Below are positions 8,501 to 55,500 of a DNA stretch of 64,000 nt, one piece after another (position 1 is the first letter of the stretch; every line of letters starts with the position of its first letter). Location: positions 1,054,001 through 1,118,000 of the forward strand of contig JAYWIR010000019.1 of the NCBI GenBank assembly GCA_036172245.1, given 5' to 3'. Made by a program: the position numbers and the translations under genes. The notes below the pieces were generated by a model. That model made no database searches and was not told the DNA's origin. It saw nothing but the letters and a program-made list of their open reading frames with translations. This stretch comes from Raillietiella orientalis. Lineage: Eukaryota.

Positions 8501-11240
8501 TTATGTTTGAATTTTTAAAATAGTTTATGTTCAGCTTTTAATGTGATTCTTCACAATGATTATGGCATCCTGGGTTTTTTACATAGTGGTTTTTGTTGTA
8601 GCATTTAGGTGTGTAGTGAGTATTGTGGGGTGCTTAAATATTAAGAACTGAATCAAACATGAGATTGCAAATGTAACAGCAGATTTAACTTGTGAGTGTG
8701 TAAGGGAAAGTGTACACTTTCTGACAGAACAGTAATTTAGGATCTAAACATTAAGTGTAATAGCTTGTTGTCTGGTCATCTTATTCTTTCAATTGTCCAA
8801 AATATATTATGGAATGAAGTAGTCAAATGAAGTAGTCATTTGAAGTTCTCTGCTGGAAGACCTGGAAATTTATTAACATTAGGAACCTACTTCAAAAACT
8901 GCATGTAAGAAAAACCTTGTGAGATGCCAGTTAGGCATAATCAACATGGCTCAATGCTTTAAAATACACTGGTGCAGGAAAAGATGAAAAATGTTTTATC
9001 TTCCTCTTAAATATTCTTAGGATGTAGCTCTTATAAAAAGCAAAGATCCGACTGATGCCTCTATAGTTTTTTTTTTTTTTTTTTTTTTCAAAATAAAAGA
9101 TTTGCGACATTTGTATTAGTTACTCCATTACAAGAGAGAATTCTTGATATTAAGCATCGTGTTTGCATGCAAGATTGAACTAAGTACATCAGCTGCATCA
9201 CACATGTAACTCATTCATTGAATTTAATGGTTTAATACCTTATTCATTGAAAAAATAATCAATGTTCACTGACAAGTAATATTTTAGGATTCACTAATGA
9301 AAATAGACATTTGTCTTTCTTTTCCTGAAAAGATTATGTGCTTTTTGAAATGTGCAATTTGCGAAACACTTAGTTCTTGCCAATTTAGGCTATTGCAAAT
9401 GCAACAAGTGGAAAGAGAATCATAGCAAATATGTGGTTGCAGTTGTGATTGAGAAGTGAATTAAGAATTATTTTCGTTCACATTCTGCTTTTTGGTTAGT
9501 TGAGAAAAACACGTTTATAGTCAACTTCGGTTTTTAAAGATATCCAATTTATATTTGTCTAAGTTTTTTTGTCACGTGGAGCATTTCTAGATGCCTGCTT
9601 CTTTTTAAGTGCAGTGCCACTTCACTTAAAATGGAATACAGTTAAAGCAAATTCCAGATAGACAATGCAAATTTTGTTGCTGGTTATTCTATGAAACCTA
9701 GAGCAGAAAACTAAGTAACCTTTTCACTGGACTGCAAAACATGAATGCAGTTTTACGATCCTCAGTTGTGATTGAATCCTCAGTTCAGTTTGTTGTTGCC
9801 ACCATGCATGACACTGAACCTCTAACAAGCATGGAATGTGTACATTGTATTGAAAGTGTGTGATAACCATACTTGCAATCACCATAGGTAGGGTGGCAGC
9901 AGATCAGCACTTGAATGAGATGATACATCAGGTGCTTAATACATCATGTTCTTAACCTTCCTTCCTTGCTAGTCCCAAGAATTTCCTGAGGTATGCAAGT
10001 CATAAATAGAAAATATACCATGCCCATCTGTGAAAAATTATGATACAGAAGTTCAGGTTTCAGTTACTAGACAATAGTGGCAAGATAAAAAGGAGCATCT
10101 TATGTTTGGTCACAGGGAAATAAACCTTTTGAGCTTACCTCCTGCAATGAAACTGTCCTCTAGTAAATTGGAAATTTTGATTTATTCCTGGTTCTAGCTC
10201 TTTGATTCGAAAGTGTGCATCTGTTTTTGTTTCAAAAGCCATATTTTGTGATGTTGAAGGACCCAGACTGTAGTTTTTAATTTTATTGTGTGGAACTTAG
10301 ATCAGAGTTCTAACTTTTGCTCCACAATAAATCAATTTGAAAAGAAAATTTAATGTATTTCGTTGTTTCAGTGTGTCCGAAGGAAATGAAAGATTGCTGT
10401 TTTAGCTAGCAGTTGTACTGTTTTCAAACATTATTCATGAACTTTCAGTGACAGTAATAAGTTTTAAAGAAATAGCTCCATAAATTAAGAAAACATAAAC
10501 ATGCATTTTTGCATTGTAGCTCTACAAAGTAGATGTAGATTGATATCCAGAATGAAATTCTTGTAGTTATTAAAGGGTAACTGGGTCTGCATAAACAGAG
10601 AATTACAGATTCAAACTGAATTCAAATTGAAATATTCAAATTGAATTTGAAAATTTGTACTAGTTTCCATGTTTTTTGTGTTTGACAATTTTCAGCCAAC
10701 ATGATTGGATGATTTGTGCTGTTACTTTCTTAATTGTCATGCAGATTGAACTGCACACTGTTTATGTTTCAGCGACAATTGTACTCAAGAGCACAGACCA
10801 GAAACAGAAGAAACAGAGGAACCTCCCAAGGTGCAGGAAGTTCAGATCAGTGAAGACGATGCTTTATTTTCTCAGAGGTAGCTTTATATGACTGAATATG
10901 TAGTTCATTTGTGTGCTTAACCAGGTGTAAACTGTATTATAAGAAAGATGATGCTTTCATATCCAAAGGAATTGGCATGTTACATGTTAAAAAAACAAAC
11001 ACAGAAAAGGTTCAGTTATTGATGCGTGCCAATACTGGTCTGGGCAATATATTGTTGAATATTTTGCTACAGTCAGATATCCCTATTACGCTGAAAGACA
11101 ATAATATTATTTTTGTGTGCATTCCTAATCCTCCCTTTTTTGCAAGTGATGAACAAAAACCAATGCCCTTATTATTCAAAATGAAAACTGAAGAAGAGGC
11201 AAACAATTTATATCAGCAACTATTGAAATTTAGACAATAA
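5589..11240 (+). CDS. NUP50: Nuclear pore complex protein Nup50; 6 exons
   Basis: Exons 5589-5735, 7703-8163, ~8209-8260, ~8328-8411, 10773-10877, 10925-11240 with consistent phases. N-terminal importin-alpha-binding segment MAKR...GTYTLASEEEISHRIIKRARRR; central LRALNEGLLLWIKQHLDKNPYCDLTPVFNDYKKHL; C-terminal RanBP1-like domain EPPKV...CKLYYKKD...KGIGMLH...QLLMRANTGLGNILLN. Confidence 0.93.
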
Positions 11241-26913: not shown

Positions 26914-29900
26914 TCATCTAATTTTATGCCTACTAGAAGATGAATGCTTTCTGGAAACAGTTTTTTTATTAAGTCTGGCACAGTTTTCAGATAGAGACGT
27001 CTCCATTACATAACCTACGGTGCTCCGGGAGAGTTTTAAACGGATAGGCATGATCTTCTGGTCCACTGGCTGGCTCTTGGCCAGGCTAACTTTCAACTTT
27101 ACAGTCCGGTTCTCGTCTAACGGGTTAATGGCGAATCTGTTCACGTTCTTGCAAAAAGACTTTGCATCGTTCAACGGCAACTTGGATGCAATGGGCTTTG
27201 GCGCGTCGCGGTCACCCTGGTCGTGCTTCTTCCCGAACCGAATGATCAGCCTGGACGCCGACGGCTGCTCCGAGTTTAGGATTTGGAACTCGTGTCTGTT
27301 ATCACTTGGGAACTCGGAGCACACCCCGTTTTCACCGACCGAATACTTTTCTTCCGCGGAGCTTTTTTTCTTGCACGAGATGGAGTGGCGCGAATCCTTT
27401 TTTAATCTTTTCGATCGAGAGCGGAGGTGGACAGAATTCTTCGACGTTTCGAATCTGGACATGATCATGTCCCTGTATTTGAGACTATCTTCTTTGAGTT
27501 TTTCCAATGAGGGTTTCACAGCTACACATTCAGGATAATCGGGAATTCTCTTTTTGGGAGGCTTACCTTTCGTAGAAACGGTTTTGTTCATATCTATCGC
27601 ATTTATAATAGAGGGCACGACATTGTTGTTCTCTACCGAAATAGATCCTTGCACGCTAAACGCGTCTTCCTGCTTACTGGCGTCGTTCATGATTTTATAG
27701 GACAGGTTTTTGTGGCAATTTTTCACTTTCGACAGGTTGATCCTCAATTTGGGAGGGGGGAGGACCCCCTTCTCTCCGTTCTGCTTGATCGTGGGGACCG
27801 ACGGATCAGTCTGCAGCGTTATGGTGTGCTCATATATGGAGTCCGAGTGGATGCAGTTCTTTGAAGAGACGAGCTTTTTCGCTTGCTCGCTGTTTTTCTC
27901 CTTTAGGAGCTTTTCGCAGGAGTTTTGCATCTTCGAAGGCCCACGCTTCTTGGATTTGATTCTGTTTATGTAGCAGCTGTTGAAGGCTTGATAATCCTCC
28001 CGCGTGGGGATGATGGTCATTGAAGCAACCGCTTTGGGCATGGTGATGACGGTTCTGGGAATCATGTTTGGCAGAGTGTGGTTGGAATTCGAAAACGGCT
28101 GCACGTTGTCAGGGTTATCCTGATTCTGGTATTCCCTTATTAGTTCCTTCTTGCGCATCCTCCTCAAACTGCAGATCGTGCTCACAGTGTTGGACGACGT
28201 GTCTGTTGGCACGTGCACCGCAGAAGTGGAAACCGCGTTCGTGGTGTACTTGGAGTCCAAGAACGGCCCCTTGATCTTCACTTTCAGCTGCATCCGCGAA
28301 TCTTCCAAGGAGCTGCACACGCAATTATCGATGACTTTCGCATCGACTTCGACGGCGTCATTAGTATTCGGGACTGGATTCGAAGGCTCCGAACTCTTGG
28401 AAGATTCGTTATTGCTGGCACCGCTCACTTCATTCAAGTCCACCGCAATGGATGGATGGTCCTCGTTCAACAGCCTTGGGTTCGGATCGTCGTAACTGTT
28501 GATGCTATCTTGTGGAATAATCTGAGCACTTTCCTGAAGCGTGTACTCCTCGGGTTTGTGGGATGAAATAGCACTACTGATGTCCACAATGTCTTTACTA
28601 GGGTCTAAGAAACTTGCATATGGGGACACAGGAGGTAACTGTGACGACGGATGTAAATAAGGACTGCTCATGAGATCGTGCAAGGTGGGGGAAATGGGAA
28701 CGTCGGAATTACTGGACACTATGTACGATGAAAACACAGAACCCGGAATCTTCATCTTCAAAACTTTGGTGTCGAAAGTTTTGTTTTCCAGCAACTCGTT
28801 GTTTGTACAGACATGCCGCATCTGCTTTTCAACGGAATAGCTGTTTGAATCCTGCAGCTCGGGTGTGACCTGTACGACATTATTAATTTCATCCATCAAC
28901 GCGCAGGAGTTTTCTACATCGCAAGTATTGGGCACATATTTATCGTCAAACACATCTGGCAGATCCTCGGTGAATTCATACACCGTCCCGGCAAAGTTGT
29001 AATTGGCTTTTGCGAAACTTTCGGAAGATATGCTCACGTTCTGCTTCCGCTTGCCAAATGAGCTTTTATTCACTATTTTCTTGGGAGTCAGATTTTTGGT
29101 ATAGATGGTCCGTGAGATGTTGATTTTGCTCGAGTTCGTTATTTTCCTCTCTTTTATTTTGAGTTCGGGATCTGCGCACTCCCTTGATACGGGAGGAAGG
29201 AGAATTTGGTTTAACATGGGATGCTGATCAACAGGGCAGGTATGGTTTTCGGTTTTCACATGTGAATCCATTTCATCAGGATTAAACAGCTGAATGTGGT
29301 TTTCAGCAAGAAAGGGCTGAATTTCCAAGTCGTTGCCGGGAGGGATGCAGGATGCCGCCGCAGCATCTGCCTCGCATTTTTTCTGACCGAACGGTGATGA
29401 CACAGGCATAATGTTGACAGTGGCCAACTTATTAGGATCAGTGCAGGGAATATCGCAATAGTCCTCATTGGAAACGATTGCTGCGGAATTCAATTCCATG
29501 GGGGTTGCTTGAATACTGTCGTGTTCTTCGGAATATAAGGGATGTGCTGGGGGTTCAAAAGTTGATATTGGGTGATCCAGCGTAATTGGTGTATGATTAG
29601 TTGAATATAGCTGGAGATTTTCTTTGGAATGAAACTCAGACTCATGATTACGATGCAAACTGATATAGGTATCGGTGGCCGCAGATTCCAAGTTGTTGTG
29701 ATAACTTTTCATGTCTGCATTTAGCAAAGTAGCCGGGAAAGTGTCGATGAAAATGGGCTTCTGTGCAACAGGGTCTGGTACTGGTTTGAGTGGCTTCCAT
29801 TTTTCACAGTATGAACTCGTTTCAGCTGAATTGATTGTCTCTGGGGAAGGTTCGATGGGTCTCCAAATGTTTGCTGGTTCCAAAAATCTTTCATTACTAA

Positions 29901-32900
29901 TGTCTCTTCTCTCATAGGTTTTATCACAATTCGGAACTTCTCCATTGTTTTGCAAACAAGTTAGCGATATATTAGGATAGACACAACCAAGTGCACCTGA
30001 CTCGGTGTTCATTAATTGTGATATTTTCGGGTATGACATTTGGGTATCGAAAATTAATGCTTCAGACGGCGTTTTATAACCAGTTGATTGGGCATTATTG
30101 ACTAATTCAGTACAACTCAAGGACAACTGACTGGATCTTTCCTTGCTGGTATCTGGGGCAATGTTAGGTAATGATGAGTTGGAAAGTGGGATGCTATCCG
30201 TGGAAGTAAAATGAGGCTTGTTTTCAAAGGTCTGCTTTTTGATGCAGGTGCTGATTTCTGACGTCAATTTCAGATTTGTTACTTTGGCATACTGAGATCT
30301 GAGCTTTTCAACTAAATGCAAGGTTTCCCTGGCACTATCCTCGAAACTGTCTTCTTTGATGTAATTTCCTTGAGAAAACTTTCCGACAGAATCATTTGTG
30401 GATCCATCATTCAAGCACGAATAGTCGGCAGAGTAAGATGATACATCATTTTCTTCGTCATGTAACATATTTACTGGATTCTGGATGGGTTCATCGTCCT
30501 TAATTTCATATTTTTCAGAACACTTTTCGGGACTCTGTATGCTCAGGGAAACCTCGGAAACAGCCACTGATTCCAAATCAACATCGATGTATTCTTTGCC
30601 AATGCTGACTTGCTCAACGGATAAGTCATTCCTGTCCAATTCATCATCAGAATTTTTGATTACCGGAATGCTCGACACCGCTTCATCTAACTCAGCTGCA
30701 TTGTAAATATCCATCTGTACTTCTTGAAAAGGTTCTGAATCTTTGGAATCCAATGGCCTTTCATCATATTCTACTAAAGCATGGTGCTCTTGGAGATGCT
30801 CATCGATACTTTCGACAGGAGCAGTAGGCAAATCAAGGGAACATTCGTTTACTTTTACATCGTTCTGTGGCGAGGCAACAGCAGAGCTACTGGCGGTTTG
30901 ACTCATATTCAAAGAGTCGATGTTGCTATCGACTGACAAATGGGTGCTGCCCACATCAGCATCAGCGTTATCGTCATCGAGATTAGCGCTTGGGGTTTTA
31001 TCCATATTGTCTGAGGAATCACTACTATAAAGGGAATCCGATGATTTCGCTTTGTCTTCTGTAGCTGTTTGCCTTTTAGATTTCTTCCCTCTTTTGCCAT
31101 ATTTATCGGAATAAAATATGTCTTCCCTGATCTTTTCTTTCAATTCCTCCACACTTAAATCGTGATTGGAAAGGCTCGACTGAGGTTTGTCATGGCTTAT
31201 GGAAACTTTGCTCATTTTTTGTATGAGAGGCATCTGGCAATCATTTTCCTGTTCTTCAGTCTCAACTTGGGGATGTAAGATGTTTTCTTTACAGTCGTTT
31301 TTGTCAGCTTCTTCGATGGGTTTCGAAGATAATATCCTTGGTTGAAAGTAGTCTTCCTGTTGGAAATCCGGTGAATCTTTGGTTGTTTTGCTGTTTTCAT
31401 GGGTGTCGTTCCTTGAGAATCTAAAGTTGTTACTGTTTTCGTCTGAGACGCTCTTGGTCCTAACAGAATCTCTCGACCACTTAGAATTTCTTGATTGAAT
31501 ACTCGATAACGTCTTGCTCTTTGTACCAACACTGGTTCGTGATTTAGTTCTTGGAGAAATCGGCGAACCCTGCATTGTGTCGATGGTCCGCCCTTCAGAA
31601 GTTTTAAGCTTCTTACTAGGCTGGACTGCCCTGGCTGATGCTTCATCAGTATCGTCAGCCAAAGAAGAATCCTTATGGCATGTTACGGCATTCTGATCTT
31701 GTTTTGAAATGCCTAACAGCCTATCAAAAACGTCGTCTCTGCTTTCATCTCGACTATTTGATTCTTTCGCCGCACTCAGACTTTTTGCGTTAGGTGCACT
31801 TCTGTAATTTTCACTGTCGCCAGAATCTTCACTGAAGGAGAATATTGATTTATTGCTGGATTTCAAGCACAACTTATTCGCGCTATGGGCAATGTGCTCC
31901 TTGTTTTCTATGAAATCATCATCACTACTGTCTGAAGTGTCCCAATTTGCACTCAAGTTTCTTTTCCTGATAATTTTCATATTTGATTTATCCTTTATCT
32001 TTTGCTTTTTTCCTTTGTTTTTAGACTTTCCTAATAATTCATCGATCACATCACGCGATTTTGCAATACCACTTATATTTTCGGTGGCCTTTTTTGCTGC
32101 TTGTCTTTGAGGGACATAGGGAAGAACTTCTTTGATTTCCGTGAACTTCGTCTTCAAATTATCGATCTCCCTTTTACGGATGCTGTTTTTTGATCCGTTG
32201 TTACCTGAAGATCTCACATTTTCCAATTCTTGTTGCTTCAACATTTCATGTTCCACAATTCTGCCATCGCTATTTTCCGAACTATTCAAATTTTTATTTA
32301 TAGAGTCTTTGCAAGTGCCCTTCTTCTTCTTCTTTTCTTTTGTTCTCAGGTAGCAAGAACCTTTCTCGAATTTATCACTCATAATTGCATCGTCAGGATC
32401 CGACTTATTGACAGAAAATATTCTGGAATTCTGAGCTGCGTTAAATGATCGATCTGCTTTCTGATACAATGTAGGGGAGGAGGTCCTATTACACTGTGCT
32501 GATCCATCTTTGGGGGATTTTTTGGTAGCAAAATCCTTAACAGATGCTTTAGTCTTCAACAGCCGGTGAGATGATTTGGAAGGGTCCTTTGAGAACTGAC
32601 TTAAAGGAGAACTCACTTCAGAAAGGTTTGTATCAGAATCTGTGTAAATGTTATTTTTATGTTTATGGGATGAACACACTTTGGATATTTCTGAATCACC
32701 ACCATCACTACTCTCATTATCCCTTTCATTTTTTAGAGAGCAAAGAGTTCCTGTAACTCGGGACATTGTTTCATTTTTTGAAAACGCGGATTGGCTATTA
32801 TCTGAATCACTTGTGCACTCACTACTACGACTTTCATAACACAACCGGCGTCTCTCTGAACTATGCACATATGTTTTCTTATATGGATTATGGTATTCTT

Positions 32901-34236
32901 TATAATTGTTGATTCCATTGACATCAACTTTGGATGAATTTTTTAGCTTACCACTAATGTGGGCCAGAATTGCATTTAAATTCTTGGAGCAATCTTCAGC
33001 TTTATCATGGGAATATAACCTATCATATAAGGGAGCCACATGATTTGCTTGATTGATGGCATGTAGCTCAGGAGAAGTTAACTCAGTATTTCTGTTTGAA
33101 TTTATGTGAGATTGTTTTGAGAAAATCTGTTCACGCAACTTGAACAGTGACCTTGTAATTTTTTCTCGCCTTGTCACCATATAACACAAATTTCGCACCT
33201 TTAATAATATATAAAGCATTACTAATTTCTCCCAATCGCAAATCAGTTCTTACCCGTTCTAAATCCTGTCTCAAATGAACAAACATTTTCATCTTTTCCA
33301 AATCCTGTTCTTGTTTATGGTTAAAGGAATCGAGTTCAACACGAGGAGGAAGAAAAGGCTTATTGAAGGTTGCCTATGTATACAGAATAAGTCGAGGTAT
33401 ACAGAATAATTCTAGGATGAGTGAAACATACAATTCTCCTAAGCTTCCAATAATTATAGATGTATTCCACAATCTCCACATTTACTTCCAAACTGTTTGC
33501 TATTTGTTTGAAATTCAAATGCAAAAAAAATTCAGATTCAATTCTCTGCAGCCTGCAAAGCAACATGAACGATATTAATTTTTTTTTATTACAAACTGAT
33601 CCTGAATTCTATATTTTGTATTTTTAATATCGTCAATATGCATCAAATATGAAGCACGAATAAAAAAACTCATATGATTACAACCTTTCCATTTGTGTAT
33701 ATTCTCTCTGCTCATTGATATCCTTTTTTCTTTTAAATACATTTCCTTTGTTTGTCATATCACAGTTAGGGTTGTTCTTATCTGATTTCTTGCAACTATG
33801 CTTTAAACAGTAACTCTGCAAAATAAAGCAATTTCATTTAGCAATGAAATCTAAATGATACAAAATGCAACAGCAACCAGTTATTGGTGTTTATGGCTCT
33901 TTCATTTCAGTGTTCATAATTTGAAGGGAGAAAGATAAGAAAAAGAAAAGCTAAAGCAAAAATGGTTAACGAAAACAAAATTGTGAATGTGAAAACAAAT
34001 ACATGGGGTGAGCAGTTGTATACTTAAATAGATGAATTTGAACAAAACATGAATAGAGAAAGGAAATTACGAATAAATAAATAATCTTTCACGCACATCT
34101 CTGATTTGTGATATACTATCGGAATTTACCACGAAACTACCGGATTATTATTCTCACATGAACCAGAAAAATGCAAATGTAAAATACAAATTTTTTGCAA
34201 GTTTATCCTAGATTTACCCCAAATTTGTATTTAGGT

Positions 34237-44700: not shown

Positions 44701-45520
44701 ATGTATGTCTCATGCAAAGCTATCAGATATATGTCTCCTATATGGTGCTATATAAATACATATATATTTGTTAGGAATTCAAATTTGTATTCTGATGATT
44801 ACTAAAGTGCTAGTGTTAGAGTAATCACTGGATTTTGTTCTGATGAAATTTGCTTGCTACCTTACCATTTTCATAGTTGGCAATATAAATTTGGCTCATT
44901 TCATGAATTCCAGAAATTATTTAATTCTAAATACATTTATTCTTAGGTTTCCAACTCTAAAAAGAAAATCTTTTTTGTGCGCGCTAAGTTCCTGTGTTTC
45001 TTTCTTAAGTTTTTTCCTATGTTCCTTTGAAATGTCAATGAAAGAAGTTAATTTGATTTTATGAAAGTCAATGGAAATGCTGGCAAGCTTGCATTCTGTG
45101 TTTATATTCTGAAGAACTACGTAATAATTAATATTTTGGATGTGCAGTGTTGCACGTGCGAAGAAGAGTGCAGGTCTGCTTTTACGCAATTGTGTCTGTT
45201 TTAATATGAGTGAGTTGAGTTAACAACAGTGGGTGCAAAATATTTTCGTGAAGGTCAAATATTTATACAAGTCTTTAATAATGCCGCATGCGTATGGTAT
45301 GTAAGATATGTAAAGGATTTATTCTGTATATGAACGGAACAGTGTGAAAAGTGCTATGTTGCAGTTGCGTAAGGCAGCAAATAGGATGGAAACTCTCCGT
45401 GTTTTGCAGTAGTGTTTTTTTTTTTTTTCATGATAGAAAAGTGGGAACAATACTTGCACTGGATTGAGATTTCAATGTCAACATGCATTTGTAAATTCGA
45501 TTCATCTTTCAAAAAATAAA

Positions 45521-48500
45521 ATGCGATCTGCAAAAGCTAGATTCAAGGTACATGATGAAACGTGACTATGTTGACTTATCTCAAGTTTATTTAGGCCTCC
45601 AGTAGTGAAAGAAGTGGATTCGTTCTTGGTTCCAATTCGAACCTAGGTGTTATAGGTTTTGATTCGTTTGAGAAGATTGGTATAATTCCTGCTACTCAAG
45701 GAAATCATGAGATGGATAGTATTATTAGCCCAGAATTCAGGCTTGTTTTAAAAAAATTGACCAAAAAAAGTCTTACTACAAAATTAAAAGTAGGATAATG
45801 AACCAAATATAACGATGTAAAGCTGTTTTGTAGACTCTAGATGAATTCATAGAATTATGTGGTCAACAAGATGATGAGGAAGTTGCAAAAATATTACCGT
45901 ATTGGCCCAAAATTTACAATAGCCTTGCAAGCAGTCCAGAAAGAAGATTACGAGAAGGCATTCAAAAGTAAGAAAATAATGATTTTGTCTTTTTGTTATA
46001 ATAATTCGACTTCCAGAGCTCATTTGAAACTTGTAGGAAAAGTAGATCGAAAACTAGCTCCATGCTTAAAGCAGATAATGGGCATGTGGCTCCTATCACA
46101 GTGCGACAATTTTGCTCCTGCTGCAAGTGTTGCTTGTAAAAGCTTTGAGGTAAGATTCCTTGATGCATTTTCTCTTAATTCTGTTTCACCTTGTCATGAA
46201 ATTGAATGTGTGCTGAAATGTGTGATGGGTCTTCAAATTTCAGATAGGGTTTTTCAAAATGATGTTGATGTAACCTTTGTCTTTTTAGTAATCTTAAAGT
46301 TTAATTGTATCTCCAATTGAGTATTGCATTGTATCAGTGATTTATAATGAAATACTGGTGTGTAGTGTGTGCAAATAATATTAATTATTGCTTTACTACT
46401 GGTAATATGTTACATGCATTGTAACTTGTTATTCATTGAACATTGTCATTCTAATGCATAAATTTTTTTTTTTTTAGTCAACATTCAGTTCTCTCAAACA
46501 AGGTGAAGCATTACTTTATTGTAAAACTGAGGTAGTTGGTTTTTTAAGAAGTACACTCTTCAATTCCGGAAAAACGTTGTTATCAAACTGGTATATCAAA
46601 AAATATAGCTAATATGGAAATTTGTCTTTGATACAGTGATAGTACAAAGGATGATAGACTTGAATTGGAGCGTGTAATTTGTTGTACCTTGAAAGCTTTC
46701 ATTAGGTTTATCCAGTTGATTCCAGAACATTCATCATTAAGTGAAGAGGTAATTAATGAAGTTTTTGATAATAATATGTTCTGGGACTTCCCCAGACACT
46801 TTGGCTCACAGGTATTTATAGGTTATCAAAGAAATTGAAACAATATTTGTTGTATTTCAGATAGCATGCTTTTGGTATAGTTTTGTTGCTGAACTTTTTA
46901 GGAATGTTCCATCTGTTATGTTGAATCAGAATGTATCTTTGCTTTCATCACTTACACTGAATAGGTTAGATGTAAGCGATCCAGCTTTATTTTCTTGTGT
47001 TTGGAATTGCATGGTGTTAATGATTAGATTATCAGAGGTTGGTGAAGTAATTGGCAGTTTATAATAGATAATGATAATCATTCTTACATTAGGAATGCTG
47101 GGAATATGTTGATTCAGAAAAAGCAATGACACAGTTTTGGAAAGTGTGCGAAAAAGGTGAAATGAACATGATTGAAATCATAGCCCCCAATTACATTGAA
47201 TTCTTATCAAGAATTCCAACTCATCTTAAGCTAAAGTTAGATGTCTATCATCAAACCTTGATGCCTTTAAAGAAAAGGTAAGTTTTTTACTATGCAGCTA
47301 CTATCATATTCAATTTGTAGAATTTTTCAGAATGATATAAAGCATCCTGATCATTTCTTTATGTTAGTGTTCATGTACCTAGACTGTCTGCAGTTGATGC
47401 TCATGGAAGACCTGGAAACTCAGCATCTTTGCAGAACTCTGTTATCAGAGCAGGTTTGATGAAACTAGTCTTATTTTTTGACATTTTCTTTTTTTCTCTC
47501 TTTTTTTTTTAGTTTTTCCCTTTATTTCACCTAGCATTTGCCAATAAGGATGAATGCAAACGATTCAGTGTTTCGTTTTTATTTGCAAGATTGCTATATT
47601 TTCTAAATTCAAAGTGCATTAGCTCTCAGCTATGTGCTTTAAAAAAGCAACATTATAGAAATACATTATTATTTATTTGGGAGGAAATATTATCCCTTAT
47701 AGAACTGATAAATGATGAAGTGTGTGCTTCAAAAGAGTACATACTGGATGTCCTTTCAAGTTTTTTGCAAATGTTAAAGGACCCAAATCGAGCTATTGAA
47801 AGGGTTCCAAAGATGATGGAAGTACCAGATGGCAAGGTGGAAACACAGTTGTCTTTCCAGTGTTTTGTGAAGACGGAGATTGAAACAGATACTTTTCCTT
47901 GGGAACAAAACATGGAGGCAATCGTGAAAATTTTGTACACTAAAATACAGTCCACAAATTCCTTTGCCAGTTTGAAATTGCTGTCCAACATTTTGCAAAA
48001 TTATCCACCAGATGAAGCGTTGAAATTTCTTTTTAAAGATTCTAGATTTGAAGTACAAGAATTTGTAATGAACTTGCTACTTCCTCATGTAATTAAGGAT
48101 GATGTAGAAAAACAGCAGACTGTGATGGTTCTTTTTCTTTTATGCTTTGATTCTCTCACTGACAAAAGAGTTGTGTTACTTGAATTGAAGAAGGTTAGTT
48201 GCTTGTTCTGAATTCATACTTTTCATGTAATGTCCCAGAGGATAGTGAGTGTTAATTTGTTTTTGGATAATTTGTTGTTGTGGTATAGCAAAAATCCAGT
48301 TTGTTATAACCTACTAAAACTGGCTAAGGAATCTCAAAGTGTTTGTCCAAGTCTCCAGGATTTCTCATGGAAGATTATCAAGCTTGCAATGACAGGTAAG
48401 AATAATCCTTATGATGACTTTGTTCCAGTGACATATTCCAGAAGAAGCAAGTCAGTCTTTAAGTGAAATCTTTCATCTCTTTATTAATGATCTTCCAAGA

Positions 48501-51500
48501 AGTAATAAATTACTTGATGCTGTCATTGCATGTTTTGCTACCTTAATTCCATGTATGCCTTTTCGGAATGGTGCTGAAATTGAGAATGTTGTGGCCAGTT
48601 TATTTGATCTTTGTCTGCAACAATCGTTTTACAAGAAAGCATGGGAAACTTGCTTTCAAGAGTACCTGAAACATGTTCAAACTGCAGAAGCAGATAAAGA
48701 TCTTACTTATAGTTTACATAAAAAATTGAGAATGCATTTTGACAATTGTCAAAATGTACTACAGCTACAGGATTGTGTTCCTTTTGTTACTTCGTTTTGG
48801 AACCAACTGAGGAATTCCTTCCTGTCAAATTATAATCATTCTGAGCAACCATGTGATCACTGGAAATTTCATAAGTTATTCAAGGATTCTTTATATGAAC
48901 TTACAGTGAAATCCGCAGATGTATGGGAAACTAAAGTTGCAACAACATGCTTAGTTCTGGATGGGTATTTCTATGATGGGTGCCTTCCCTATATTGAGGA
49001 TTTTAATTCCGAGTTTCTGTACTCCACTACTTACGATAGTATTATGTGCATGTGGTTGGTAACAGATGGAAAAGATTTTTTGGATGAGGCTACCTTATTG
49101 GAACATTTCATTTCCTTATGCCATTCATTGGGTTCATATTCTATTCTCTCGAAATTGATCCATGTTCCTGGAAATATCCCATTTTCTTCTTTGCTGAAAA
49201 TGCTAACTACCAATGTGATCACCATTTTGGAAGCTATCAGCAAGCAAACTCTCAGTCACCTAGTTCAACAAATTGTGTCCAGGTAACTGGCCATGTCTTC
49301 TCAATTTGCATGCTTTGAGACTTCTAGATCTATGGATTCACCATCAGCATGGCCAGCAGCCATCATTTGCTTGAGTAATTTGTGTGACGATTTGCAAGAA
49401 CTCTTTAAAACCCATGTCATGGAAAGGTTGACTAATTGCTCAGAGAGTCACAGAGCAGAATGTGTTGCCACACTCCAGGTAGTATTCAAAATTATCTATT
49501 GGCACTAGTAACTGAAATCCTGTAGGCTGTGCTCCCTACATTGAAAACCAAAGGAATTATGGCGATCCTACACATTTATTTTATTCCAGATGAGCCTTTG
49601 GTTCCTTTTGACTATCAGTTGCGCTGCATACTAAATGTCATCAGTTTTGTGATGCAGCACCTGCCCATGGAATATTGGAAATACAAAGATAATGAGATTA
49701 TTTTGCTATTCAGGAAAGTCATTGGTTGGGATACTGAAATTCAAGAAAACTGGAGAATGTGAGTTCATGTTCAAGCAATGGATTTAGCATTTCAGTGATA
49801 TAGATTGGAAGAAACAATTGCAGATACTCTTTTGCAGCAAAGCACTGAAATTATTTTGTTTGCTAATAACGTAGTTTCATATTTGGCTGCAAGCCTCACA
49901 GCAGATGATTGGGATGCTATCTTATGCTGTTTATGTGTATGGGTGCAACCATTACAAGTAGCCCCCCAAGTGATGGATGCATGGTGTCATGCTAGAGCTG
50001 TGTGCTTTCAAAAGAGCATCTTTACTTTAACTGCAACTTGTGTTGGTTTATTTTTGAAACCATCCTCAGCAGTCATCCAGAATATGGTCACAGACTGGAA
50101 TCAGTTTTTTTCTAGTCAAGTCTTCAGCATTTTGGTGCCACTCTTTGTTCATCATTCTCTCTCAGGTAGGTTTCCATACTCACGCTAATGTTTTAGCTAA
50201 TTGGAGTTTTAGAAGAACAGCTGAGAGATGCTTCCTTAGATAAACATTTTTTCACATCGTTTTTAAGTTGTCTTAATCATATTCCTCAAGTTTGGCTCCT
50301 AAATCTTCAGTTGCCTGAAATTTATGTGGTTTCAGTTGAAGAGGATGAGTCTCTTAGCATTCCTCCAGTAGTCCAGAAGCTTTTGAATTATTTACTTCCA
50401 CATGTGTCTTCAGATGATACCTATTTCCAGATTGGTTCCTACTATATTCTTAAGCAGTAATGTGCATAATGTTATCTCTGTGATTGTTCTCCTTTCAATA
50501 CTTTACATTTAGTAATGTCTTCTATTTAATGAATGCGCTTCATCCTTTTGGTCTGCTGATACAGTTGTTTTCCATTGCAATTTTTTTTTCAGATTCTTGA
50601 GAGCAGGTGCAGGGAATATGAAGCTTCCTGAATTGGATAATACTTGGAGAAAATCATTACCTCTCCCACTGAGCTTGCTGTACATCTTGGAAAAAAGTGA
50701 AAGTGCTTCTAATGAGAATTCATCGAATCATGTTGTTGTTGGTCATTTACTAATATGGAATCTCTGTCTAGAATGGTGTTGTAGTTTAGCTCCAAGTAAC
50801 AGAGCTCTGACAGTGCACTTCATTAAGTAAAAAATCGTTGCTTATTCATTCGACATCATGATTACTTACAGAAATGCTGGTCTTGTTAATGTGCTTTTGG
50901 ACACATTGTTTACTAATTTGTCAGCTGATGAACCATGTAGTGTTTCTTTCATTGAAGAACCAACTTTAGCATGCCTCCAGAAATGTGATCAGCATACAGT
51001 CCAGCATTTATCGTGCCACTTATATTTCCGCTGCTGCTGTTCCCTTCCAGTTCTGGTTCGCCAGTGGTGGAATGCACAGGATAAACAAACCAGCCGGTTT
51101 ATCCAAATGTTCACCAAGGAGTGGGTATCCCCTGTTTTATGTATGCAGAATATGAAAATGCTTCATACTTCGAGCCTTGATCTTGATAACATGAATGTAA
51201 GGCTGCATTTGATATAAATGAAATAATACACAGATTCCTAAGATCAAAATCCATACTAACAGTCGTGAAATTTTGGCAGCATATAGTCTAGAGGATGTAT
51301 CTTTGGATCTTAAGATAACTTTGCCAGAGGATTATCCTCTAGGTACAATTATGGTTGAGCATGGCAAGAAAATTTGTATTGACACTGCCAAGTGGAGGAC
51401 ATGGGTCTTGCAATTAAATGCATTTTTAAACCATCAGGTCAATAAGAATGTTTTTTGTAAATATTGGTTGATGTGCTTCCAGAATGGATCCATTCTAGAT

Positions 51501-51765
51501 GGTTTACTGTTGTGGAAACGTAATTTGGACAAAAAATTTGAGGGTGTGGAGGAGTGTTACATATGTTTTTTTGTTCTACATGGTTCCACGTATCAACTGC
51601 CAAAAATCACTTGTCGGACCTGCAAAAAAAAATTCCATGCTTTTTGTTTGGTGAGTTATATCTCTTGTACATAAGTGTAAGTTCATTGAATTTTTTTTCC
51701 AACAGTACAAATGGTTTAATACTAGCAATACATCCTCATGTCCCTTGTGCCGCAATATCTTCTGA
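45521..51765 (+). CDS. LTN1: E3 ubiquitin-protein ligase listerin (ribosome quality control); about 20 exons
   Basis: N-terminal ASSSERSG...VIGF...ISPEFRLVLKKLTKKSLTTKLK, LPYWPKIY, LAPCLKQIMGMWLLSQCD; C-terminal LPVLVRQWW, RWD domain LKITLPEDYPL...[38 protein letters not shown], and RING [51 protein letters not shown]. First coding exon 45521-45547 (MRSAKARFK) is the most plausible start; stop TGA at 51763-51765. Confidence 0.94.
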
Positions 51766-51898
51766 GGACAAGTTAGAGATGGAACTGGAGCTGTTTTGCG
51801 ACAGAATTTATGTGATGAAAGCATGCTTGCTGATTGATTATTTTTGTATAGTTGTTTTATTGTTTTTGTTTTTTTTTTCTATTTAGAAATTGTATAGC

Positions 51899-52555
51899 AT
51901 GTTGAAGTCCCTTGCTAAAATTTGCAAAGCTAAATATTGTACAAGTATTGGAAAAAAGTCAGGCTTTTCATCATTGAATGGTACCATTGTAATGAAATGC
52001 ATTACATCTAAAGTATATTTACAGATGTGCCTGTCACTAAGCTTGATCGTTTGATTCTTGTTTGGACTGGAAAATTCAAGTCCCAAGATGAAGTGCCTTC
52101 TGAAGTAAGGTGAGAGGTTCAGAATTTATTGCATTACATCACAAATTGTCAGTCTTAATTTTGAATGAATTAGAACATAAAATGCTTAATCAGACAGCAG
52201 GTACAATGCATGGATATAGTTCGCATTGAAATGTTTTGCGATTTCTGTACACATGTATATGTGTGTATGTATATCCTTTCATTAATGTTAAATGCCATGC
52301 AAATAAAGTTTTTTTTGAACATTGAAGGCAGTGCAAAATATTTTTTCATAAACTTTTTGCATGCATTTTAGCTGTTCTGTTTTAATGAAAGCTAGAAGCA
52401 AAGCAAGGATTCGACTTAATATAATTACAATGATACTTGGAGGAATTGCCATTGTGGGTGTAATACTTAAAGGCAAATCTGACGCTGCAGAAGGAAAAAG
52501 TGTCATCTCTAAACAGCTTGCCTGGCATGATGAAATGAAAGCAAAAGATAATTAG
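51899..52555 (+). CDS. FAM162A: FAM162 / UPF0389 (DUF1075) small mitochondrial membrane protein, 116 aa; 3 exons
   Basis: Exons 51899-51980, 52025-52109, 52372-52555 total 351 nt in frame. Basic presequence-like N-terminus MLKSLAKICKAKY; family motif KLDRLILVWTGKFKSQDEVPSEVS; KARSKARIR followed by TM helix LNIITMILGGIAIVGVIL and GKSDAAEGKSV...WH. Confidence 0.88.
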
Positions 52556-55500
52556 TAATGCAACAAACTTTTGCTGGCTTTTTTGCTTTTGTAATATGAA
52601 ATTGATTTCATATTTTGGCTTTTATAAATATTTTAGCAATATTTTGAATTTTTTTTTGCCTATTCTGTTCAGTAGTTTGTAATACTTTAGATTCATAGTT
52701 ATTCAAACATTGAAACCATGTAGAAATTTTCATCTTCATGCTGCAGCATTCTTATAGCAACTCACTATAAAAGCCAAGGTAACCACTCATAGGCAGATGA
52801 ACTGAATATCCGTAACCACACTAGAAATAAAAAAAAGGAAAACTTAAGAATAGATAGGATGGCAGGATACATGCTTCATTTCTAGTGAGTGCATGACAAG
52901 CATCCTAAATCCAAAGTATTCTAAAAGTAATCAGTCAATTTGAAGCCTGGAGCACTTTTGTAAGATACATTTTGAAATGAGTTCAAGTTTAACACAATCC
53001 ACGAGAATAAGCCAAGCAAAACAGAGATAAGTAAAACGAGTCAAATAGAACACTTGCACTTGAACACTTCAAGTCTTGAACGAAATTTCCTATTAAATGG
53101 TGTGGTACAACTTGTATACTCCAATTTATATGGACAATTTTTAAATCAAAGCCATTCACATTCGCTTCATCCATTTGGTATTAGTGCCCACCACGGATAA
53201 TGCATGTTTTTAACGTAATCAACAGTAATTGCACTTAATGAGGAGCACAGAGTCTTCTCGATTTTCTTTGTATTATGGTATAAAGATTTCACAATCTTTA
53301 CTTATTAGGGTATTGATTTTAAAAGTCAAAGCTCATGTTTCTTGTTGGAACATATGCCAGTAAATTTAAAAATGACAGTAATACAAAAGAGTTTATTGCC
53401 GGTGTTCACTAATCCAGCCTTGGGCATAAGACGCTCCATTAGCTGTTGTTTGAGCTTATAAGTAATCAAAAACTACATCTAATGCCAAATTTGATGCTAT
53501 TAATTTATTTCCAGTAATTTCCCATTGATGTTGCTTTTGCGATTGCCGATTGCAATGGAGTTTGGCTCCTTTGCTTAGTAATGGAGCTCTTCTGCTACCC
53601 AAGGAGCCATTCTAAGTTCTATCGCCTCTGCAGCCGTGTGGGCTCAGTGCATTTACCTCATTTTCAGAAATCCCTGTAACTTGGGTTTGTTTGAAAGCTT
53701 TCAACACGCGTTGTGTTTTAAAGGGAAAAACTTGTCTGTTTTAAAAATCCTTGTAAGATGTGTCGAGGCGTTTTAACGGACGATTTCTTATTGTAAAGCA
53801 ACGGTGCGTTTTACTTTGCACTGTTCTTTCATTATTCCTTCACCACATGCAGTCTCATCCTCCCAGATAACACAAGAACCGTAATTGCTATAATTGCCAA
53901 TAGCAGGATGAACCGACCGCCTCAAGATCTCAACCCTTTCCCCCCCAGTGCATCCTCCCGTGCGGGTAACGACTCATCACGCCGTAGCGACAGTTAATCC
54001 TTACAGTGTAATTGCAACAGTTTCCAAGTAATTCACAGTTAAATCCGATTTCAATGCATTTTCATTGTATCCACATATCGAAACTTAACATCTTGTGGTT
54101 CGTTTTCTTATTGGACTTCTAATGGGGTAGTTATCCCTTTACAGACCGCTGGAGGAGCCTTTTTGTTTCATGTCCAATGCAGAAAGAAAGAGACAAATCA
54201 TTTTTTTCTCAAAAGGTGGGTATTCCTAATGCTACACATAGGTTAAGGTTGATAACGTTATCTGCCGCATGAGGAAAAGCTGACATCTTCAGTACAGATG
54301 TTCACAAATCTGTCCATATTGAATGTCTCGTTCTCGGTTCTCAAAAACAGCACGAGGAGACTTTTTGTTCCATTCTTTTAAAACCAAGTGACGAAGAGTA
54401 TACTCGTCACGTGTAGACAAGGGAAAATCATTCCGAAGTTTCAGTATGGTACGTTCAAGGTTTACTCCCGCAAGTAGAATCTGTTTGTGCAGAGGAGACT
54501 GTGCAAATAATTTTATTGCGACTGGCAAGCAAATCACAATGGTGATTCAAAAGTTTGCGTATCTGCATTTGCTTTCACCCTTGCGTAGCTACTAATGTGA
54601 AATCAGAGGCACTTTCCCCATGTGATCCACAGATCAGGAAAACGGATCCCTTCCTTGGCTTTGCCCACTTCGCATTACCGATCCAAACGTTGTTTTCCTC
54701 TTTCCAAAAATCATGAGCAGATGCAGTGAAAATGAACTATTTACTAAAATCGAGTCTTACAAAAATACTTTTGAATTTGAACTTTATTGCTTTCACTAAA
54801 AGTAGTCATAACCATTTTTAGGTTATGATGTTTTTTTCAGATTACTGAACCTCTTTTTCAAAGCTTGGATCGATTTCTGTTGAAAACAAATGGAATTATT
54901 TGTGTTTTCACCGGATTTACAGACGTGTAAAAATTGCTTCCATTCATCCGGAACAAGCGAACAGTAGTATGTGCTAATGCATTAGATTCAATTCTGTTCT
55001 ATTCTTAGAGCTCAATTCCAATGAAAACTGATGCGAAAAACAACTAATGGCAAAGTCATTCAGAAATTATTGTACAATAATGTTTTTTTAATAAAAGCTA
55101 CATATTTCTTTTGTAAAGAGGTCGCTTCACCAGTAAGCCAAGAGCTTATAAAAGATCTGTCTTTTAGGTCATCGGATTATAATTTTTTTCAATTTCTAAC
55201 CCTTTTAACTTTAACAGTTTCCATCAGTCCCATTCTTTAGTGCAAAGTTAATCACAAGAAAGCAGTCTTTACTACAAAATCAATAATCAGATCTACTTTT
55301 GTCATAATCGCCCTTCTTCAATGTTCTTTTATTTACTTTCCTTTCACAAGGAAAATGTTCATTGCATAACTGTCATATGCAAGAAGAAAACAAAGATTAT
55401 TCTCTAATTTACGGATAGCATATAGATGATTTCTTTTGGGAATCTAATTCCCCCTCCCCTTTTGTTAATGTTTATTGCTATATTTGAGTACCCTGAAATG

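Follow-up and report, generated by a model that had tools for sequence, protein, structure and literature searches.

The stretch of Raillietiella orientalis DNA analyzed here (64 kb; hereafter, the window, whose positions we use throughout) carries a predicted LTN1 gene followed closely on the same strand by a FAM162 gene. An earlier note placed the TGA of LTN1 at 51763–51765 and the ATG of FAM162 at 51899, with a gap of 133 nt between them, and all of these coordinates were borne out by re-reading (Table 1). The 3′ end of LTN1 matches PF23009 (106.8 bits), and its matches to RING-like models are weak; on the strength of these matches, together with its sequence features, we take the gene to be LTN1. 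Its last exon (51706–51765), read by eye, is the end of the RING, and no homologues were found for its second exon. PF06388 is matched by FAM162 exons 2 and 3 (29.8 and 27 bits, with a cut-off of 25), and relatives were found at 40–44% identity; none of the papers listed by our literature search mentions FAM162A.

The gap shows no sign of stable folding (fold z-score 0.67, with equal folding in 152 of 200 shuffles). The earlier report that it lacks both AATAAA and ATTAAA is confirmed, and none of six other variant hexamers starts inside it either; one AATACA, at 51727, lies within the last LTN1 exon, and the first canonical signal 3′ of the LTN1 stop is the AATAAA at 52302. This lack is not special to LTN1, since AATAAA or ATTAAA is present within 140 nt at just 23 of the 67 gene ends. 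Because that first AATAAA falls within the long second intron of FAM162, the LTN1 3′ UTR may overlap FAM162. An Rfam search of the 64-kb window gave no matches.

The assembly comprises 210 Mb in 491 contigs, and its genes lie in AT-rich islands among GC-rich DNA. The three best matches to its mitochondrial COI (C282), which put the genome among the pentastomids, are Armillifer (74% and 73%) and Linguatula (73%), followed by insects (68–71%), and 53 further COI matches, mostly partial or interrupted by stops, look like nuclear copies. Elsewhere in the window, a rhinoceros/Jade gene exon resembles insect and crustacean sequences at ~50% identity, and the 3′ part of the gene is one open frame of 2,111 codons (26914–33249), the median length of exons in this genome being 165 nt. 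Two Ku-domain matches with identical scores lie in inverted orientation at C5:3770343 and C5:3792661; around one of them the DNA is GC-rich and the gene finder gave no Ku model. The 5S rRNA genes (C23, C24, C40) form inverted pairs 1.2–1.7 kb apart, not plain tandem arrays. Copies of U1 occur in 5.5–5.9 kb arrays with unrelated upstream flanks, the top U2 matches are missing their 5′ ends and are preceded by AT-rich tails, and tailless U2 and U1 5′ fragments of 25–34 nt are dispersed in the gene islands at about six per Mb sampled.

Table 1. Features of the LTN1–FAM162 locus, in window positions, followed by the other tight tandem junctions, given as gap lengths.
Feature	Position or gap	Strand	Remarks
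NRF1-like CGCATGC	45285–45291		Upstream of LTN1; 4/29 starts, 5/567 background windows, 0/68 gene ends
Candidate LTN1 5′-UTR intron	45297–45436	+	Putative, 140 nt; donor 45297 (score 5.5), acceptor AG 45435–45436 (score 5.5)
DRE-like ATTCGAT	45495–45501		26 nt before LTN1 ATG; 11/29 starts, 62/567 background windows, 4/68 gene ends, 0/7 downstream genes
LTN1/listerin coding span	45521–51765	+	22 coding exons, predicted ~1,630 aa; self-trained gene model and Pfam
LTN1 first coding exon	45521–45547	+	9 codons; followed by a donor at 45548 (phase 0, score 4.4)
Last LTN1 donor	51651–51656	+	Score 4.88, phase 0; join to 51887 gives in-frame fusion without RING end
Intercistronic gap	51766–51898	+	133 nt; unstructured; no poly(A) hexamer
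Donor-like GTTAGA	51772–51777	+	Score 4.06; 115 nt from acceptor
Branch-point-like CTGAT	51830–51834	+	~52 nt before AG; putative, read by eye from its likeness to the consensus
U-rich tract and 3′ splice acceptor	51840–51886	+	AG 51885–51886; score 7.3
Acceptor-to-ATG segment	51887–51898	+	12 nt; open in FAM162 frame
FAM162 (DUF1075) coding exons	51899–51980, 52025–52109, 52372–52555	+	Three exons, 116 aa
AATAAA in second FAM162 intron	52302–52307	+	Intron of 262 nt; T run follows; candidate LTN1 poly(A) signal
AATAAA 3′ of FAM162	52826–52831	+	Candidate distal poly(A) signal, 271 nt beyond the end of FAM162 coding sequence
Clathrin heavy chain to MED21	334 nt	same strand	Found blind
MED21 to NCBP3	137 nt	same strand	Found blind; NCBP3 presumed
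Intronless WD40 gene to NIF3L1	138 nt	same strand	Found blind; WD40 gene presumably CIAO1
PGAP1 to WD40 gene	41 nt to first in-frame ATG		Pre-selected; PGAP1 stop putative; WD40 gene presumably STRAP
Ku80 to histone-fold gene	113 nt	same strand	Pre-selected
Histone-fold gene to third gene	178 nt	same strand	Pre-selected; third gene without Pfam match

An apparently unpaired acceptor in the gap and at other tight junctions

Splice sites were scored as log-odds from a gene finder self-trained on 373 kb of AT-rich gene islands, and the acceptor preceding FAM162 lies above the 95th percentile (7.0) for predicted acceptors (n = 324). The U-rich tract, described earlier as longer than usual, is exceptional in its T content: of the 30 nt before the AG, 25 are T, whereas 240 short introns average 13.0 and reach at most 23. 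Such T content was found in none of 1,299 random AT-rich windows and the acceptor score was matched in 12 of them, while among U-rich 3′ flanks after ordinary stops (n = 67), the fairer comparison, one holds an acceptor of at least 6.0, six hold one of at least 5.3, and 15 one of at least 4.9. There is no donor above 0.8 at 34–62 nt from this acceptor, the 5th percentile of real donors being 1.9. Predicted introns have a median of 47–48 nt, with 437 of 591 at or below 62 nt and 7 of 591 at 100–130 nt; no such donor stands at the normal intron distance, but there is one of 4.06 at 115 nt, and LTN1 has many others further upstream. Judged by these sequence controls, the FAM162 acceptor is a real one, not 3′-UTR noise, and has no partner within the usual range of intron lengths. 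The donor-like GTTAGA at 51772 is present as the earlier note described, and joining 51771 to 51887 does leave 18 nt from stop to ATG in a single frame; the donor is an ordinary one, 47% of random 237-nt windows holding one of at least 4.06.

LTN1–FAM162 belongs to a genome-wide class of tight tandem pairs. DNA around WD40 genes was taken as a sample of housekeeping islands, giving 85 gene models that score at least 10, and seven tight tandem junctions were assembled, three of them found blind to acceptors and four, including LTN1–FAM162, pre-selected because already noticed. Among the genes concerned, Pfam confirmed clathrin, WD40, and NIF3, and the match to MED21 fell below the cut-off. Two runs of three genes are included, one from clathrin through MED21 to the next gene and one from Ku80 through the histone-fold gene to a third.

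At all seven junctions an acceptor (4.9–7.9) stands 12–72 nt upstream of the ATG and the interval 34–62 nt from it holds no donor above 2.0; of the 29 gene starts that stand alone, 4 show this layout (Fisher p = 4e-5, with thresholds chosen post hoc and fitted to the seven). The 29 starts, a small set consisting mostly of WD40 genes, were picked from 65 predicted because their N-termini agree with those of presumed orthologues. When FAM162 is left out, the acceptor scores of the other six junctions are still above those of ordinary 3′ flanks (p = 9e-6). Stop-to-acceptor distances run from 18 to 318 nt, and the upstream genes at four of the seven junctions lack AATAAA. At four of the six junctions other than LTN1–FAM162, the stop of the upstream gene is followed by no donor scoring more than 2.0. 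In-frame stops interrupt the acceptor-to-ATG segment at four of the seven, all among those same six, so the partner of these acceptors would generally be a non-coding leader and not the upstream ORF. At three of the seven intercistronic acceptors a donor-like GT follows 0–1 nt after the AG (scores 5.5, 5.2, and 3.5), possibly marking recursive splice points or simply reflecting plain acceptor consensus.

Close spacing is not confined to tandem genes, because convergent neighbors are as close: eight of ten convergent pairs lie 33–171 nt apart, stop to stop, and their 3′ UTRs must therefore be tiny or overlapping. The window itself has convergent ends at 11240/11281 and 62417/62572.

Promoter marks and rival accounts of the FAM162 5′ end

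Gene bodies in this genome are CpG-poor (o/e 0.39). The 300 nt before the ATG contain 3, 5, 0, 2, 2, 0, and 1 CpG in the seven downstream genes (FAM162 having 3), compared with medians of 7 for the 29 starts (p = 5e-4 versus the seven) and 3 for 67 gene ends. Two motifs, which we label DRE-like and NRF1-like, are enriched at starts: either one is found at 11 of 29 starts, in 67 of 567 background windows, at 4 of 68 gene ends, and at none of the seven downstream genes, a contrast that is inflated because the motifs were derived from the same 29 starts. LTN1 has both, FAM162 has none within 350 nt of its ATG, and one DRE-like motif lies at 50722, inside LTN1. By a leave-one-out composition score of promoter-likeness, five of the seven group with gene ends, and the other two, FAM162 and NIF3L1 (both 1.0), lie where starts (10th–25th percentile, 0.4–1.8) and ends (75th–90th percentile, −0.7 to 1.4) overlap; the 3′ half of LTN1 scores −4 to −13. 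As a group, then, the seven downstream genes appear by these marks to lack local promoters, FAM162 taken alone being ambiguous.

The 133-nt spacing and the strong acceptor without a nearby partner make it probable that FAM162 is processed from the LTN1 transcription unit. Of the operon-like unit proposed in the earlier note, co-transcription and a functional acceptor lacking a nearby donor gain support from genome-level controls; the spliced-leader (SL) trans-splicing that the note attached to it found no positive support, as limited searches yielded no SL RNA candidate and unpaired acceptors at stand-alone genes occur at about chance.

FAM162 could also be transcribed from a promoter of its own within the final exons of LTN1 or its 3′ UTR, the two transcripts overlapping and a long FAM162 5′-UTR intron beginning at 51772 (or 51651/51677), but we think this unlikely. 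The low CpG count, the lack of a motif near the FAM162 ATG, and the negative scores of the LTN1 3′ half all speak against it, as do the rarity of 100–130-nt introns and the four of six other junctions without a usable donor after the stop, although the promoter-likeness of FAM162 itself is ambiguous, a DRE-like motif does lie at 50722, a donor of ordinary strength does follow the LTN1 stop, convergent genes crowd to a similar 33–171 nt, and overlap of 3′ and 5′ UTRs is treated as routine in FlyBase (PMC4528330). Quite improbable, in our judgment, is translation of FAM162 from a dicistronic mRNA, spliced 51771^51887 or unspliced and depending on reinitiation or internal entry, or from an LTN1–FAM162 fusion made by readthrough or by skipping the last exon. 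Both joins are in frame, and the gene finder itself made the one from the 51651 donor, but skipping the last exon would lose the end of the RING, and fusion is not the general purpose of the layout, since four of the six other acceptor-to-ATG segments carry an in-frame stop. Scanning cannot reach FAM162 because 176 ATG triplets precede it in the LTN1 span, introns included; reinitiation after an ORF of 1,600 codons is poor, and the gap is unstructured. The 51771^51887 model in particular does not generalize, as at four of the six other junctions no donor exceeding 2.0 follows the stop. In Drosophila, 159 dicistronic pairs, most of them not explained by simple scanning, are described in PMC4528330, and such loci resemble this one in having two close same-strand ORFs in an arthropod; they differ in that the ORFs here are separated by a selected splice acceptor and the first of the two is very long.

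We also consider it rather unlikely that a polycistronic pre-mRNA is resolved by joining an SL RNA to 51887, with LTN1 ending at or shortly before that position in a Ciona- or nematode-like manner. Same-strand gaps of 41–178 nt (one of 334), unpaired acceptors at seven of seven junctions, low promoter marks, and two three-gene runs would all suit such operons, and those of Ciona intestinalis and Caenorhabditis are alike in their tight same-strand arrangement, apparently unpaired acceptor near the ATG, unrelated members, and frequent lack of AATAAA; according to PMC1488885, upstream cistrons in Ciona are mostly without AATAAA, as at four of seven junctions here, and Caenorhabditis intercistronic regions are cited there as ~100 nt. 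Trans-splicing is known in calanoid copepods (PMC4664967) and cited for amphipods (PMC7986045), crustacean lineages that have the machinery and that form a different crustacean group. In contrast to Ciona and Caenorhabditis, no SL RNA was found here, stop-to-acceptor distances spread from 18 to 318 nt, and unpaired acceptors at stand-alone genes do not exceed chance. This last point is the stronger one: the stand-alone genes show no outron excess (4/29, about the random AT-rich level), whereas in animals known to use trans-splicing the majority of the genes concerned are monocistronic (PMC1488885), which weakens the SL reading. Moreover, the 4.06 donor 115 nt upstream should compete in cis. 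The searches for an SL RNA were weak ones: a donor-plus-Sm pattern, which missed the canonical five-U Sm site, gave 54 genome matches compared with 94 in the reversed control, and the repeated ones among the 20 examined lie in longer repeats; the Rfam SL1 model had no genome matches, but its control was silent too; and no unknown short repeat with a donor and an Sm site emerged from an all-against-all comparison of 1.02 Mb, although it did recover short 5′ fragments of U2 (five unselected loci) and of U1 (one locus). Copepods keep some SL genes beside 5S genes (PMC4664967), whereas none was seen here beside the U1 and 5S genes examined. The upstream flanks of U1 and U2 copies are unrelated, so no common snRNA promoter motif could be derived.

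Among the donor-plus-Sm matches, the best-looking one was rejected, as it sits inside a longer repeat (92% identity over an 800-nt alignment, with no Rfam match of note), and three other repeated families were likewise set aside, their flanks also being common to the copies across the stretches shown. RACK1 (C20:2248838, minus strand) has a start-like motif rich in pyrimidines and a 5′-UTR intron of 36 nt with paired splice sites, and the gene looks cis-spliced, not trans-spliced.

According to PMC7986045 (2021), operons were unreported in copepods and amphipods, and none of the papers listed by our literature search reports SL trans-splicing or operons in pentastomids, so the SL reading would be new. 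That pentastomids evolved SL trans-splicing almost only for operons, LTN1–FAM162 being one of many, strikes us as improbable; if true, SL-resolved operons in an arthropod would be unreported in the literature searched, and stand-alone genes that are not trans-spliced would be unusual.

A possible 5′ exon shared with LTN1

Our best guess, to which we would give not quite an even chance, is that the FAM162 acceptor is cis-spliced from a 5′ exon shared with LTN1, the rest of LTN1 being skipped. This model is missing from the earlier note and fits at least as well as the three models given there. One promoter, upstream of LTN1, would be common to both genes, and a short 5′ exon, either a non-coding leader whose last base is 45296 or the first coding exon (27 nt, closing at 45547), would be joined to 51887, so that the whole of LTN1 would be removed from the FAM162 mRNA as a single intron of ~6.4 kb. 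The LTN1 mRNA would be the alternative product, probably ending in or beyond the gap (the first AATAAA being at 52302), and the 47-nt introns of LTN1 would presumably be spliced out locally and hence would not capture the leader donor. We infer both the shared transcription and the identity of the donor from the DNA.

Two usable donors lie near the LTN1 5′ end, 45297 and 45548, such donors being common by chance, and LTN1's own 5′ acceptor (5.5) is weaker than that of FAM162 (7.3). Joining either donor to 51887 keeps the FAM162 frame, which is weak evidence because 12 of 21 LTN1 donors are phase 0. The WD40 gene upstream of NIF3L1 fits a class of genes with shared promoters, since its lack of introns (319 codons; single-exon models are 2 of 58 complete ones) would be expected for a gene inside its neighbor's first intron. 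Several observations count against a shared exon: the motifs at 45285 and 45495 may place the transcription start downstream of the 45297 donor, that same intronless gene has no clear leader donor (the best being 4.7 at −106), and 21 exons would be skipped at LTN1, more than in the intronless case. Three-gene runs would require a three-way choice, for which an SL operon is simpler. The 5′ ends of PGAP1 and Ku80 lie outside the DNA examined for leader donors.

The proposed cis-splicing from a shared exon has a known parallel in Drosophila, where 130 genes have a common promoter and 5′ non-coding exons (e.g., Ip259/RpS27A) and 11 sets have common N-terminal coding exons (e.g., Su(var)3-9/eIF-2gamma) (PMC4528330). 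The fly pairs with a shared promoter or 5′ exon are similarly unrelated same-strand neighbors whose downstream member has an acceptor without a local donor or a promoter of its own. In the present case, by contrast, a large gene of 6.2 kb with 22 coding exons would be skipped, some of the junctions form three-gene runs, and the shared exon is predicted only. The arrangement also looks commoner here, with 3 blind junctions among 85 gene models as against 130 genes in the fly genome.

Upstream of the LTN1 ATG, 45437–45520 holds 28 open in-frame codons, and an ATG at 45294–45296 is the last codon of the candidate leader exon. An N-terminal extension of LTN1 from 45437 has a negative coding score and Atlas matches of at most 0.78; because of the negative coding score, 45437–45520 is probably UTR. 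A third gene ending at 45412 was considered and rejected, its coding log-odds being near or below zero and 45320–45409 having no Pfam match. A genome search for retrocopies found no copy of FAM162. One processed, exon-joined LTN1 fragment, with neither end of the gene present, lies at C38:1396671-1396925 (80–85% identity), adjoining a U2 5′ fragment; it joins the exon ending at 49478 to an acceptor near 49589, unlike the modeled 49526, which suggests an alternative or corrected acceptor near 49589.

Implications for gene expression and annotation

Nothing supports the functional coupling of LTN1 and FAM162 raised in the earlier note, and the other pairs join unrelated housekeeping genes. The gene finder fused such pairs (LTN1–FAM162, clathrin–MED21, WD40–NIF3, PGAP1–STRAP, and Ku80), and because predictors behave in this way, false chimeras will be present in annotations of this genome.

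Either answer changes the reading of this lineage's genome. If FAM162 is trans-spliced, arthropods would gain operons and SL trans-splicing would gain another origin. Cis-splicing would mean that a parasite whose introns are 47 nt long routinely expresses a gene by leaving out the whole of a multi-exon neighbor, which would be the cis equivalent of an operon and is rare in flies.
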